From the NCBI GenBank assembly GCA_964016885.1, contig OZ024740.1, positions 236,840,001 through 236,904,000 on the forward strand: a DNA stretch of 64,000 nucleotides. The letters are read 5' to 3'. The translations under genes were made by a program, and so were the position numbers. This document shows, piece by piece, positions 6,744 through 57,640 of the stretch; within the stretch, counting starts at the first letter, position 1; every line of letters starts with the position of its first letter. Source of the DNA: Eledone cirrhosa. Its lineage: Eukaryota. The notes under the pieces are model-generated. The model was not told where the DNA came from and did no database searches. It saw only the letters and a program-made list of their open reading frames with translations.

Positions 6744-6867
6744 TATACATATTAATAAGAGGAATTCCAACTTTGTCTGATTTACTCGTTTTATTTACAA
6801 TCCTTTAAAATTTATAATGGTATTATAATGAAATAGTATGATAGAATATTAAATTCTAAGTGTTAAT

Positions 6868-6906
6868 TGAACAAGTACTTTCATGCTTTCGCAATCTTCA
6901 GGTTCA
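6868..6906 (-). ncRNA. mirror copy of the hammerhead motif in the left arm of element 1
   Basis: Exact reverse complement of 6980-7018. Confidence 0.7.
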
Positions 6907-6979
6907 TAATATGTGGTGACAGTCAAGTTTGCAATTTTCAACAGTTGAAAATTGCAAACTTGACTGTCACCACATATTA

Positions 6980-7018
6980 TGAACCTGAAGATTGCGAAAG
7001 CATGAAAGTACTTGTTCA
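6980..7018 (+). ncRNA. minimal type I hammerhead ribozyme motif (predicted cleavage after 7013)
   Basis: TGAAC-CTGAAGA-T TGC GAAA GCA T-GAAA-GTAC-TT-GTTCA: stem I TGAAC/GTTCA, core CUGANGA and GAAA, stem II TGC/GCA with a GNRA loop (U-U at its base), palindromic GUAC in place of helix III. Confidence 0.7.
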
Positions 7019-7224
7019 ATTAACACTTAGAATTTAATATTCTATCATACTATTTCATTATAATACCATTATAAATTTTAAAGGATTGTAAATAAAACGA
7101 GTAAATCAGACAAAGTTGGAATTCCTCTTATTAATATAATCTTGTATACACAATCATACACACCCGTGTATACTTATCTATCTATATATACATATATATA
7201 ATGCCTTTATGGTAAATAAAGAAA

Positions 7225-7455
7225 TATATATATACATATACATATATATATACATATACATATATATATACATATACATACATATACATATATATATACA
7301 TATACATACATATATATATATATATATACATATACATACATATATATATATACATATACATACATATATATACATATATATACATATATATACATATATA
7401 TACATATATATATATACATACATACATATATATACATACATACATATATATATAC

Positions 7456-7494
<39 letters not shown>

Positions 7495-7965
7495 CATATA
7501 TATACATACATACATATATATACATACATACATACATATACATACATACATATATATACATATATACATATATATACATATATACATTTATATATACATA
7601 TATATATACATATATACATTTATATATACATATATATATATACACATATATATACATATACATACATATATATATATATACACATATATATACATATACA
7701 TACATATATATATATATACACATATATATACATATACATACATATATATATATATACACATATATATACATATACATACATATATATATATATATACATA
7801 TACATACATATATATATATATACACATATACATACATATATATATATATACACATATATATACATATACATACATATACACATATATATACATATACATA
7901 CATATATATACATACATATACATATATATACATACATATACATATACATATATATACATATATAC

Positions 7966-7997
<32 letters not shown>

Positions 7998-7999
7998 AC

Positions 8000-8031
<32 letters not shown>

Positions 8032-8053
8032 ACACATACATATATATATATAC

Positions 8054-8085
<32 letters not shown>

Positions 8086-8249
8086 ACACATACATATATA
8101 TACATATATATATACATACATATATATACATACACATATATATATACACATACATATATATACATATATATATACATATATATATACATATATATATATA
8201 TACATATATACATATATATATATACATATATATATACATATATATATAC

Positions 8250-8314
<65 letters not shown>

Positions 8315-8384
8315 CACATATATATATATATACACATATATATACATATATATATATACACATATATATATATATATATACACA

Positions 8385-8420
<36 letters not shown>

Positions 8421-8615
8421 CACATATATATATATATATATACACATATATATATATATATATACACATATATATATATATATACACATATATATATATA
8501 CACATATATATATATATATACACATATATATATATACACATATATATATATATATACACATATATATATATATATACACATATATATATATACACATATA
8601 TATATATATATACAC

Positions 8616-8676
<61 letters not shown>

Positions 8677-8695
8677 TATATATATATATATACAC

Positions 8696-8728
<33 letters not shown>

Positions 8729-8743
8729 TATATATATATATAT

Positions 8744-8796
<53 letters not shown>

Positions 8797-8833
8797 TATA
8801 TATATATATATACACATATATATATATATATAT

Positions 8834-8872
<39 letters not shown>

Positions 8873-8889
8873 TATATATATATATACAC

Positions 8890-8922
<33 letters not shown>

Positions 8923-8957
8923 TATATATATATATACACATATATATATATATATAT

Positions 8958-9006
<49 letters not shown>

Positions 9007-9032
9007 TATATATATATATACATATACACACA

Positions 9033-9064
<32 letters not shown>

Positions 9065-9164
9065 CACATATATATATATATATATATATACATATACACA
9101 TATATATATATATATATATACATATACACACATATATATATATATATATACATATACACACATA

Positions 9165-9226
<62 letters not shown>

Positions 9227-9261
9227 CATATATACACATATATATATATATATATATATAC

Positions 9262-9294
<33 letters not shown>

Positions 9295-9337
9295 CATATA
9301 TATACATATATACATATATATATATATATACATATAT

Positions 9338-9374
<37 letters not shown>

Positions 9375-9375
9375 T

Positions 9376-9416
<41 letters not shown>

Positions 9417-9485
9417 TACACATATATATATATATATATATATACATATATACACATATATATATATATATATATATACATATAT

Positions 9486-9536
<51 letters not shown>

Positions 9537-9543
9537 CATATAT

Positions 9544-9596
<53 letters not shown>

Positions 9597-9613
9597 TATG
9601 TATATACATATAT

Positions 9614-9655
<42 letters not shown>
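7225..9655. repeat. degenerate (TA)n array of about 2.4 kb, interrupted by C (TATACA polarity on +)
   Basis: Seen directly; it produces the spurious IYIY ORFs in the track. Confidence 0.97.
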
Positions 9656-9659
<4 letters not shown>

Positions 9660-9794
9660 ATACTTTGGGAGGGTCATGTTGCCAATAAGAAACACACGCA
9701 CCAGTTGCATTCACTTCAATTTAATTTATTATATATTTATAAATTTCTGGTTGGTTGGTTGGTTCCACAACCAGATAGTTGTTTATATATATAT

Positions 9795-9839
9795 AGTCAT
9801 AGTTCTTTCGTCACACACTCTGTGACCTCTTCAGTGACT
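9795..9839 (-). ncRNA. mirror copy of the hammerhead motif in the left arm of element 2
   Basis: Reverse complement of 9945-9989. Confidence 0.8.
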
Positions 9840-9944
9840 GGGGATTTCTTTCTTCGTTTCTGTGCCTTTCCTTTCTTCTATCCTACGCCATTTTGGCGTA
9901 GGATAGAAGAAAGGAAAGGCACAGAAACGAAGAAAGAAATACCC

Positions 9945-9989
9945 AGTCACTGAAGAGGTCACAGAGTGTGTGACGAAAGAACTATGACT
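9945..9989 (+). ncRNA. minimal type I hammerhead ribozyme motif (predicted cleavage after 9984)
   Basis: AGTCA-CTGAAGA-G-GTCACA gagtg TGTGAC-GAAA-GAAC-TA-TGACT: 5-bp stem I, 6-bp stem II, one extra G after A9, minimal helix III, CUA cleavage triplet. Confidence 0.8.
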
Positions 9990-10188
9990 ATATATATATA
10001 AACAACTATCTGGTTGTGGAACCAACCAACCAACCAGAAATTTATAAATATATAATAAATTAAATTGAAGTGAAAGCAACTGGTGCGTGTGTTTCTTATT
10101 GGCAACATGACCCTCCCAAAGTATAACGATATCGGTTTCAACACACGGTTTCAGATAAAGAATCTTGCTAAACAAATTCAGAAACGAA

Positions 10189-13585
<3,397 letters not shown>

Positions 13586-20054: not shown

Positions 20055-21860
20055 TCCATTACAGGTGCTATGACGAAGTTCCTCCTCCAGCTCACCATGT
20101 CTAGCATTGCCATCTGAATTTCCCCTCCCTCCAACCTAGTGTCATCTTCAAGAACATCCTTCAGCATTGTGGTTCGTCTTCCAACTCAGCTGCATGTATC
20201 AAATTTCCAGAAAAGGACTCTGCCAGTAGGCTCATAGTGACATTTCACATGTAAGCTAATGTGAACCTCCTATGCCTTATGATGTCAGAAAGGCAAAGAT
20301 GTGAGCCATAAAGCGATTTCTTTGCTACATCTGTTCTCCAGGATGTGTTCTGGACCCTTCTTAGCATCTGGGTGAATGTGCCACTAATCCTCTTGGTGAC
20401 TATTTTTGTCAATGTCCATGACCCACATCTGTAGAGGAGAATGGACTCAACCGTTGCTTTGAATAGCCTCATTTTTGTGTTTTTCTTGATCACAGATACC
20501 TGCACTTTTGATAGGGAGTTGAGAGTCACTCATGCTTTGCTTATCCTGGGGTCCATGTCATACTCAGTGTTTATAAAACTGCCAAGATACAAGAAGTCAT
20601 CAACCTTCTCAATCTCCGAACCACCCAGCATTTGATTATTTGATGTTGCATTTTGCCAGCATTCAAGAAGAGTCATATGGATTGCACTGCAGCCTCCATT
20701 CTGTGTAACATGTCCTCAGTTTATTTTCCCAGAGAGCTATGTGATTTGCATAAGTCCTTTCAGGTAGAACTTCTTCCAGATGTCAGGTGCTTTGTCGACA
20801 TTTCAGTATTATTCTGCTTGATGGTGCAATGGCATTACGCAATGCATAATCAAGGCATATCACAAAAAGAAACGGAGCCAGAGGATCTCCTTGGAGGACT
20901 CTGGTGTCAATGGAGAATAGATCTAAGTTTTCCTTGGGTGTCATCCCAAGTGCTAAAGTATTTTCATACATGACTTTAATTGCATTCACAATCTGATGAT
21001 GAATCCCATACACAAGAAGGATTTTGAACATCATCTTTCAGTCGATCGAATCAAAAGCCTCCTTGAAATCTATGAATACAATTGGTGCCTACTTCTTGTG
21101 ATTCCGTACCTGCTCAATAATCTTTCTTGGAGTCAAGATGTGTGAGACAGTAGAGCAAATTGGCTGAAATCCATTTTGGCTGGAACGCAGTGTTGTTGAT
21201 ACTTAGTCTGATCCTATTGTAAGTCTTTGCTGCGATTTTCATAAGACTGATGTTGCTATAGTTGATGCAGATGGTAAGATCATCTTTCTTTGGTATTAGT
21301 ATTATTCCTGATATTCCCCATTTCGCAGGCCTGTGTCTTTCAAAGATTTTGATGCAGAAGTCTTTTAGAAACTTGTGAGCTTTGGGTAGTTTCCATAGGT
21401 CTAAAATTAGGCCATCAAGCCCAGGAGCTTTGCCTGGTTTCATTACCTTTAGTGCCTTGTCCACCTCTTCAATGGAGAATTCAGCAATGCTTATCTCTGA
21501 ATAGACTTAAAATACTGGCTCAATCGCTAAGTCTGGTTCACAATGATTGTCAGCTGATAGGAGTTTGCGAAAGTGTTCCCTCCAAGTCACAAGGGAGTCT
21601 TCCTCTTAGATATATACCACATTCTTTCTCTTTTTCTTACCAGAAAGTTCTTTTATCAGTCCCCCAAGTTCCTCTGGGTGTGTTGTTGTTTCTATTTTCA
21701 AAATCAGCCAGGGTTTGGTTGATTCTTTCGTCTGCCAGATGGTTGAAAGTACAGCAATGAAATTTCTGGTGATACTGTACATCTGAAACAGCAGATTTGA
21801 AGGTTTCACTTCTAACTGTAGCTATTGCTGCACTTTCCACAGTGAGTGTGGCTCAACATA
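20055..21860 (-). mobile_element. decayed RTE-clade LINE, reverse transcriptase region
   Basis: GKAPGLDG, LIPKKDDL, FIDFKEAFDSI, VLQGDPLAPFLFVICLDYAL, KMRLFKATVESILLY across broken frames. Confidence 0.85.
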
Positions 21861-55599: not shown

Positions 55600-57640
55600 T
55601 TAAGTGGATATAAAATAGACAGCTCAACTGAGAGGGGAAACAGCAATTGTAATGAAGTTAACAAAAGAGGAAAGATACAACTGAATGATGTAGATATGCA
55701 GGAAAATATGGCGATGGAAGGTTTGGAAGCTAAAGGACCTTTCTGTTAAATATAGGTTTAGAAAGGCCCTATGGGATGCATTTGATGAAAGCTGAGATAA
55801 ATTAGATTCATATCACATAGAGGACAATTAGAAATTCTTAAGTGACAACATTTTGCAAACTACTGATGAGACTTGTGGCTGGAGTAAAGCACCAGCCAGA
55901 CAGAGAGTGAATTGGTGGTGGAACAGCACAGTGGATAAAGCCATTAAAGCTAAGAGACAGGCATGGAAAGACTGAAAAAATGGCAGTAGCAGAGATCAGT
56001 ACCAGGTAGCTAAGAAAGAGGTGTACACAGCTCGAAGAGAGGCTGAAGAAAGTAAATTTGTCAATGTCTTGAGACGTGAGGATCAGAGGCGTGAAGTGTT
56101 CCATATTGCAAGGTAGTATGTCAGTGTGAATAAAGGATGTTGTTGGGGAAAAGTGTGTTAGAAATGATGCTGGTGCACTTAGCCCCACTGATGACCAAAA
56201 GAAAGAGGCCAGGAAATGTTGCTATGAGAGGTTCAAGAATGTAGAGAATGAATGGGAGGAAAGAGACTACTCCCAACTTACCCAACAGAGGGACCAGCTA
56301 TTGAAGTTGTCAGTTATAGGGTCAAATCAGAAATTGCTACAAGGATAAAGGTGATGCTCTAGAAAGGAGCAACTACAGAGGAATGAAACTAATAGACCAA
56401 TTTATGAAAGTGACAGAAAGAGTTCTAGCACAGCTAATTATGGAAAGAGTAGATGGTATGCAACTTGATTTTGTGCCTGGGAGGCAACTAATAGAGAAGT
56501 TTCTAGCCAAGAATAAACTGCTGTATTTAGCTTTTATTGATCTTGAAAAAGCTTTTGACAGAGTACTTCATTCTGCTATCTGGTGGCCTTTTGGGAAATT
56601 AGGTGTAGAAGTAGAAGATTGGCTTGTGAGAACAGTGCAAGCCATGTACAGAGGAACTGTCGGTAAAGTGAGAGTAGAAATTGAGATTAGAGAAGAATTT
56701 AAGGTGCAGGTAGGAGTTCATCAGGGTTCGGATCTCAGCTTGCTGCTGTTTTTTTTATAGTTCTCCATGCCATAAGAGAAGAAGGAGTTTAAAATTGGCT
56801 ATGAGATAAAAGAACTAGAGAATAATTTCCGACTATGGAAACAATTTTCAATCAAAAGGGCAAAAAATAAACTTAGTCAAAATTAAAGTACTAGTAAGTA
56901 GGAAAGAAGATAGGACCCTGGTTCCTTCAGGAAAATTGTCTTGCTCAATATGTAGAAAAAGCAGAGCATAAACTCTATACAATGCATACAATGTAAAATC
57001 TTGGGTACACAAGAGATGACAAAGGCAGACTTTGTAGGCAAAAGATGCACAGGGGTAATTAATGGGAAGAGCGTCAGTGATATAAACAAGGATGCTCTAG
57101 AGCATAATTGCTAGAATAAAGATAGGATGGAAGAAGTTTAGAGAGCTACTCTTACTGTTGACAACAAAAGCCTTCCTATGTACAAAAGAATGGCTGTATG
57201 ATGCCTGTGTGTGAAGTCAATGCTGCATGGTAGTGAAACGTAGGCAGTGACTGCAGAGGACATGTGTAGGCTGGAGAAAAATGAAGCAACCATGCTTTGT
57301 TGGATGTGCAATGTAAATGTTTGGATGAACTGAGGGAGAAACTGGTTATAAGATAAATCCGAAGGGGTGTACAAGAGAGAAAACTGCATTGGTATGGACA
57401 TATGATGTGCATAGATGATGATTACTGGATGAATAAGTGCCAGGAAATCCTAGCAGAAGGAAGCCACAGTAGACGTAAACCAAGGAAGACCTGGGTGGAG
57501 GTGGTGAGAGTTGATCTCAAGTTGCTGAGCTTCACAGAGGAGATGATGAAGAAATGCGATGAGTGGAGATATGCTGTACTGAAAATGATCCATGCATGTG
57601 AACATGGAAAAATGGACATGAAAACAATGATGATGATGAT
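55600..57640 (+). mobile_element. decayed RTE (BovB-like) LINE, RT to 3' end with (GAT)n tail
   Basis: LYLAFIDLEKAFDRV, VQVGVHQGSDLSLLLF, HWYGHMM, RKPRKTWVEVV; many stops and deletions. Confidence 0.87.

Follow-up and report, generated by a model that had tools for sequence, protein, structure and literature searches.

The stretch of DNA analysed here (64,000 nucleotides, referred to as the window) contains a palindrome which carries a hammerhead ribozyme motif on each of its two strands. From the letters alone it had been proposed that the antisense arm of a read-through RNA would sequester the ribozyme and that the layout thereby acts as a built-in switch. The locus therefore raises the question of whether the palindrome is a regulated ribozyme, and, if not, what kind of element left it there and how its mirrored form arose.

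Comparison of the arms places the palindrome's centre at 9892, with arm pairing spanning 9652 to 10132 (see Table 1). Over this 239-bp palindrome three arm mismatches were counted (9656/10128, 9709/10075 and 9843/9941), none of them inside the ribozyme, as the sequence-only reading had it; its account of the hammerhead parts, their coordinates and the mirror copy also agreed with a check of the sequence. A9941 and G10128 are alleles private to this locus. At the junction, the 5′ reach of the tail-less arm exceeds that of the tailed one by ~5 nt. Folded as RNA, the region has an energy of −431 kcal/mol against −113 ± 5 kcal/mol for 100 shuffles. An assembly or read fold-back artefact was considered, as the position between long microsatellites makes for difficult assembly. 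However, the right arm bears 61 extra bases, the arms differ at three positions, the flanks are not mirrored, the exact junction recurs in different flanks at C1:128410340, 157653171 and 205812553, and an equal architecture is found at hundreds of loci, clean-flanked ones included, so that an artefact can be given almost no credence. The locus is thus a real and young structure, as had been suggested; the palindrome had been read correctly, but its 61-nt tail, which identifies the class of the element, had been overlooked.

Table 1. Features of the palindromic insertion, and edited sister insertions elsewhere in the genome. Positions are those of the window unless a contig is given.
Feature	Position	Strand	Basis or remark
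Minimal type I hammerhead, CUA triplet	9945..9989	+	Sequence, folding; predicted cut after 9984
Hammerhead mirror copy, identical to plus motif	9795..9839	-	Predicted cut between 9800 and 9799
Tail-less inverted arm, 5′-truncated PLE pseudo-LTR, to inner tail boundary	9657..9894	-	Matches L033 reference 2592-2851
Tailed pseudo-LTR arm, portion common to inverted arm	9894..10127	+	Sequence match
PLE tail, 61 nt, on plus-strand arm only	10128..10188	+	Comparison with family palindromes
Head-to-head junction, 3-nt loop, 1-2 nt overlap	9890..9894		Arm comparison
Short ATG motif at junction, presumably YY1-like, intact on minus arm only	9886..9894	-	Zone of family 5′-end clustering
TA/TACA microsatellite left of insertion, inferred target	7224..9654		Read from sequence
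TA-rich microsatellite right of insertion, inferred target	10189..13585		Read from sequence
Edited sister insertion (L161/L162)	G000:C1:2.087-2.090 Mb		Clustered A>G, element sense
Edited sister insertion (L293/L294)	C1:18.413 Mb		Clustered A>G, element sense
Edited sister insertion (L295)	C4:189.33 Mb		Clustered A>G, element sense
Edited sister insertion (L296)	C12:36.56 Mb		Clustered A>G, element sense

It should also be noted that ~5.8 kb of TA microsatellite (7224-13585) surrounds both this palindrome and a second hammerhead-bearing palindrome, Element 1, and that a flip of the GC skew near 12,000 indicates that the TA repeat tracts are themselves partly inverted. Elsewhere in the window, two frames at 21114-21506 (minus strand) and 56320-56760 (plus strand) resemble, by eye, fragments of LINE-type reverse transcriptases.

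The plus-strand hammerhead consists of a 5-bp stem I (9945-9949/9985-9989), CUGAAGA (9950-9956), an extra G (9957), a 6-bp stem II (9958-9963/9969-9974) with a 5-nt loop, and GAAA (9975-9978) followed by GAAC and UA. The features of the minimal hammerheads of Penelope-like elements (PLEs) are present, namely an intact core, an extra base before stem II, the G10.1-C11.1 pair and a NUH triplet, which is CUU in 80 of 135 family arms. Stem III is vestigial, with at most 2 bp around 2 nt, and is not self-complementary; positions 15.2/16.2 are complementary (G/C), but loop 3 is AA. According to folding predictions, in which neither proteins nor tertiary contacts are considered, the isolated motif forms stems I and II, and closure of stem III costs ~5.5 kcal/mol. 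Because the stem III loop is not palindromic, the forced intermolecular stem III helix of a dimer was predicted at +2.4 kcal/mol, against −4.8 kcal/mol for Element 1. No Rfam family reached its gathering score within the 64-kb window and, at E ≤ 10, no hammerhead family was among the best 150 of 153 matches; those listed were hairpin or microsatellite matches to miRNA-type models and were rejected as generic. Neither the stable stem III nor the curated-model match of a canonical, monomer-active type I hammerhead was found, and with so short a stem III the earlier description of the motif as near-canonical was overstated. As modelled here, the hammerhead is of a minimal, dimer type. The minimal metazoan PLE hammerheads (Cervera and de la Pena, 2014; PMC4209133) share with it a short stem I, a long stem II, a vestigial stem III, the extra base between positions 9 and 10.1 and the G10.1-C11.1 pair, and occur as opposite-strand pairs 100-700 bp apart. 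It differs from them in its non-palindromic stem III loop (AA at this locus, GA or AG in subfamilies), so that a dimer helix would carry a tandem purine mismatch.

The parent of the module was sought in a long family copy (L033), where the same module lies downstream of a 778-aa frame with RVT_1 (327-414) and GIY-YIG (673-763) matches, both below the curated Pfam cut-offs (E ~2e-4). Its translation contains a C-x4-C-x2-C linker before the endonuclease and a CCHH endonuclease motif, and L033 also has an inverted 5′-truncated copy directly upstream. The hammerhead core lies ~280 nt past the stop codon both in L033 and in a second long copy, L031. Endonuclease-positive PLEs are defined by a reverse transcriptase followed by a C-terminal GIY-YIG endonuclease, with a CX2-5CxxC linker in Neptune and Nematis (PMC8557442). 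As Penelope and Poseidon have no such linker, the CX4CxxC linker points to a Neptune- or Nematis-type parent, and to judge by this protein the parent is an endonuclease-positive PLE, probably of one of these types. Among the relatives listed, the closest named protein was from Octopus vulgaris (68%), which makes an octopod host probable, and no named clade reference element was among the best 120. The frame with the reverse transcriptase and GIY-YIG domains is absent from the truncated copy at 9657-10188.

The layout of the locus is also that of a PLE insertion. Pseudo-LTRs in tandem or inverted orientation, an optional tail, a bias towards TA repeats and inverted 5′-truncated copies have been described for PLEs (PMC8557442), as have palindromic junctions (PMC3846280). 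In common with complex insertions of endonuclease-positive PLEs (PMC8557442; Pen2a_Av, PMC3846280), there is an adjacent inverted 5′-truncated copy, a palindromic junction, a tail at one end, a hammerhead in the pseudo-LTR, a TA-repeat target and a parent with reverse transcriptase followed by GIY-YIG. The copy at 9657-10188 differs in that its tail is 61 nt long rather than the 30-40 nt described for those published insertions, that it is without a coding remnant, and that no target-site duplication is readable within the microsatellite. The palindrome is thus a 5′-truncated PLE insertion with an inverted pseudo-LTR, a 61-nt tail and a TA-microsatellite target, and both its layout and its ribozyme type have already been published. 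Assignment to the non-LTR retrozymes (non-coding tandem hammerhead units) was rejected, the locus being a head-to-head single insertion with a module derived from a coding PLE; no passage on inverted layouts was found in a retrozyme preprint (10.64898/2026.07.22.740005).

Counts were made across the 3.0-Gb genome with reversed patterns as controls. The exact 30-letter core pattern gave 18,038 matches and the family 3′ motif 23,280, and 821 pairs of cores lie mirrored at a spacing of 100-130 nt, with 0 for each reversed control; taken with the fold energy, the 18,038 and 821 matches against none place the structure far beyond chance. The right arm matched all 40 scored candidates, out of 1,101. 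Neighbour pairs within 5 kb of the first 100 cores were head-to-head in 12 cases, tail-to-tail in 2 and tandem in 2. Among the first 50 of the 821 mirror pairs, 43 belong to the same family and 7 to another, and these 43 family palindromes bear the tail on one arm only in 40 cases, on both arms in 1 and on neither in 2. Outer ends lie at reference 2851 or 2912 in most copies. The palindromic layout is a routine product of PLE integration. A short palindrome could alternatively be a non-autonomous mobile unit (MITE- or retrozyme-like) copied whole, given that 4 of the first 50 pairs have an identical junction and that one sister copy (L296) begins at the junction zone and is edited, like a daughter of a hairpin RNA. 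However, most loci have differing junctions, there is no tandem multimer at this locus, and one shared junction is tailed on the opposite arm in L118 compared with L001, L130 and L134, which indicates that the junction formed independently. Such a unit is accordingly considered improbable.

Two arrays were observed in the course of the census. At L031/L032 (G000:C7:32.855-32.865 Mb) there are three identical 3,526-bp units, each with a truncated PLE and a 23-nt satellite; this is a segmental tandem and not one made by the PLE. A short tandem array of ~110-nt units holding most of the ribozyme lies between TA runs at L297:1000-2200.

Conservation of the ribozyme was assessed in 135 arms chosen independently of the core pattern, its positions being divided into tolerant and constrained by the author after viewing the table. 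With this division, common variants were present at none of the 35 constrained positions as against 5 of the 10 tolerant ones (p = 2e-4) and 9 of 40 flank positions (p = 0.003). Variation was seen at N7, in loops II and III, at the cleavage base and at the final pair of stem I. Covariation of both stems across family copies, on which the sequence-only reading had laid weight, found partial support: stem II shows signs of it against a diverged sister family, and the evidence for stem I is thin. In this sister family the hammerhead occupies the equivalent position, and its stem II differs in sequence yet remains paired; by eye, in a small number of sequences, stem II showed two to three two-sided changes relative to L079 and one relative to L080, and stem I a single terminal change in L080, the sister copies being decayed. 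L079 belongs to a sister family which L093 and L098 connect with an endonuclease 46-57% identical, and a protein search for diverged relatives mostly returned the same family. A loose hammerhead pattern gave 22 matches against 21 in its control and was for this reason uninformative, and only hits with family-like flanks were used. In a sequencing run of another organism, the summed contig depth reached ~1e5 over 9945-9984, fell to 40-700 to the left and right of it and rose again at the tail, though this depth does not measure copy number and could stem from another family sharing the motif.

On the pattern of variation in these copies, the ribozyme is genuine and conserved at family level. 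It was inherited from active source elements and is under selection there, where it is likely a weak cutter assisted by dimerisation or by protein. PLE hammerheads described so far cleave poorly even as dimers (PMC4209133) or depend on the protein of the element (PMC11167929).

Further hammerhead families were encountered. Element 1 (window 6749-7223) is a perfect palindrome centred at 6943 (6749-7137, no mismatch) with a tail to ~7200, and its hammerhead is of a different minimal type with a palindromic stem III; a DNA search with it gave no match, and an exact pattern then gave 5,981 cores, often head-to-head. A remnant of a PLE-like endonuclease was found upstream of Element 1 in 2 of 12 loci. 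A third family (L065, L076, L077, L237-L256), with 6,947 exact cores which also occur as head-to-head pairs, shares the first 14 letters and differs in its stem I and in the greater length of its stem II. In 20 loci no coding frame of its own was found, and it was for lack of this link not used for covariation. Nine other loci (L081, L084, L086, L087, L088, L092, L097, L099 and L100) represent an old decayed family with short-stem-II hammerheads and related flanks.

The sequestration of the ribozyme in a read-through RNA, the first half of the switch proposal, was upheld by folding predictions for either direction, and already during synthesis. In the full hairpin the predicted pairing of stems I and II is below 1e-17, and position 9950 is already paired to its mirror by the time the growing chain has been extended to 9960. 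An RNA beginning at 9930 was predicted to form stems I and II at 0.9-1.0, and one beginning at 9894 to form stem I at 0.1-0.55, depending on its length. Since the mirror arm would pair with it in a read-through RNA, the hammerhead at 9945-9989 is likely inactive, and at this locus it is probably silent. None of the sequencing runs listed as matching the sequence was of RNA, which counts neither for nor against transcription.

The second half of the proposal, that a competent ribozyme is kept silent by the hairpin and set free by initiation at the centre, unwinding or editing, fared less well. It gains from the predicted sequestration, from the short RNA in which stems I and II fold and by which an RNA initiated at the centre could do so, from the survival on the minus arm of the motif which we take to be YY1-like, and from a record in DNA of editing of family RNAs across the region (see below). 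Against it stand hundreds of equivalent pairs with varied junctions, in which the mirror layout is routine, and the want of upstream promoter-like motifs: longer copies carry what are presumably an ETS-like motif ~110 nt, an NRF1-like motif ~100 nt and a YY1-like motif 57 nt before the core, and the first two are absent from the copy at 9657-10188. Moreover, the stem III duplex is predicted to be unfavourable (+2.4 kcal/mol), PLE hammerheads are the poor or protein-dependent cutters described above, the edits alter core adenosines, and no mark of selection was found at this locus. A built-in switch is thus highly improbable.

The starts of the insertions, sampled by the 3′ motif, suggest how the RNA was copied. 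Of 100 arms, 78 span the cut site, so that the copied RNA was mostly uncut at the ribozyme; insertions starting at the cut site were rejected as a class, with a single arm starting near it, and ambiguously. Eleven arms start 56-74 nt before the core, which is presumably where transcription begins. A further 12 start in the ribozyme's first half, between 10 nt upstream and 17 nt downstream of the core start, and 1 in the preceding 45 nt; the former may possibly reflect stalling of the reverse transcriptase at stem II. The spanning arms resemble PAc, a Poseidon of Anolis, where, in vitro, uncut RNA is the main template and ribozyme cleavage is dispensable for insertion (Frangieh et al., 2024; PMC11167929).

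Editing, one of the three proposed releases, has left traces in the family. Among 297 aligned pieces, A>G enrichment in element sense was seen in four, which come from two loci, and T>C enrichment in none. A two-site edit pattern gave seven matches, comprising besides the two source loci a further two edited ones, on other contigs, and one without edits; a four-site pattern matched the genome only at its two source loci, with 0 for the T>C control. L297 was rejected as an edited copy, not being hyper-edited. In the four edited loci, A->G changes affect 30/75, 38/73, 14/72 and 14/72 adenosines inside reference 2575-2760 and 6/355, 0/131, 2/115 and 0/30 outside it. This zone extends roughly from the junction zone to a point 100 nt beyond the core and includes the pseudo-LTR and the ribozyme. 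Where both arms of an edited locus cover it, 36/36, 28/30 and 9/11 edits are common to the two. G is depleted upstream of the edits (12/60 vs 84/232, p = 0.02) and enriched downstream (p = 0.026).

These edits appear to be of the ADAR type. They share clustered A>G and upstream-G depletion with the ADAR hyper-editing of repeat-derived double-stranded RNA, for which octopus is among the most edited species and Penelope is heavily edited in lizard (PMC5625713). Relative to that study, the marks are here fixed in the genomic DNA of sister insertions and not at the 9657-10188 locus, and downstream G is enriched, whereas in octopus that preference was found to be reduced. Among the open-licence papers listed, no title dealt with edits that have become fixed in PLE insertions. 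Edited copies are rare in the family, and at 9657-10188 a single one of the three arm differences is A>G, lying at the duplex edge, which was not accepted as evidence of editing at the locus. The proposal that editing bears on this region thus stands insofar as it has occurred on family RNAs, but not as a release: as the edits change A6, A9 or the GAAA box (reference sites 2656, 2659 and 2679-2681), such changes would inactivate the ribozyme. Any transcript of the locus would be a long double-stranded RNA on which ADAR or small-RNA pathways could act, and not a regulated ribozyme.

With regard to the origin of the mirror, the arms of 37 of the 43 family palindromes were aligned; the other 6 were left out, and the alignment of some old copies is noisy. 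The two arms of an insertion show a median of 1 difference over ~197 columns, compared with 14 for arms of different loci; they are identical in 13 of the 37 insertions, and 17 private variants are shared between arms. Derivation of the arms from RNAs of different subfamilies was rejected, as the polymorphic columns, 26 of the 197, hold 20 of the 177 differences between arms. Low arm divergence and the edits shared between arms indicate that both derive from one sense RNA. The arm reaching further 5′ is the tail-less one in 22 of 40 palindromes and the tailed one in 16, the two being equal in 2.

These data are best explained if both nicked strands of the target prime reverse transcription on one sense RNA, from two fixed start sites 61 nt apart, and if both cDNAs stop near the 5′ end of the RNA and their ends are joined by microhomology. 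The protein of a PLE nicks and extends both strands, with two start sites which bracket the tail (PMC11167929); PAc has these start sites and AT-rich targets in common with the family, and the available part of that paper does not explain inverted arms. Among the open-licence papers listed, no title dealt with two-ended priming in PLEs. Alternatively, a single cDNA or an antisense template could have produced the mirror by simple fold-back (self-priming), the mechanism put forward in PMC3846280. A shared template for the arms, the near symmetry of many junctions, whose overlaps are short (−10 to +5), and the 3-nt loop closing the junction here would all agree with this. However, were a tailed cDNA to fold back, the tailed arm should be the one extending furthest 5′, which is the case in only 16 of 40 palindromes and not at this locus; from a tail-less cDNA the tail cannot be made; and an antisense template does not fit the edited loci, with A>G in element sense only and no T>C-rich piece or control match. 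Fold-back with trimming of the ends, or later gene conversion between the arms, could mimic part of the pattern, and fold-back in its simple form is regarded as rather unlikely. Two primings on one RNA with microhomology joining are therefore favoured over the fold-back variants, with reasonable though not strong confidence.

Taken together, it is very probable that this locus holds the 3′ end of a PLE laid down twice, head to head, by integration, with a hammerhead likely inactive at the locus and a ribozyme inherited at family level. As such it is a real, young and ordinary PLE stub of known layout. The mechanism of PLE integration is an open problem (PMC8557442), and hundreds of such stubs constitute clean records of it. 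The family offers countable tests of fold-back against two primings, of a sense against an antisense template, and of whether the ribozyme cuts before copying, and its edited sister copies represent RNA editing entering inherited DNA. It is tentatively proposed that the mirrored stubs may supply RNA antisense to the ribozyme end of active elements, so that integration would itself create an ADAR-dependent brake on the PLE; this is suggested by the edited zone of the four sister insertions, which starts where the stub arms start and spans the hammerhead. If this were so, the shared edits and the two-way asymmetry of the junctions would be genomic proof of priming from both nicks on one sense RNA.
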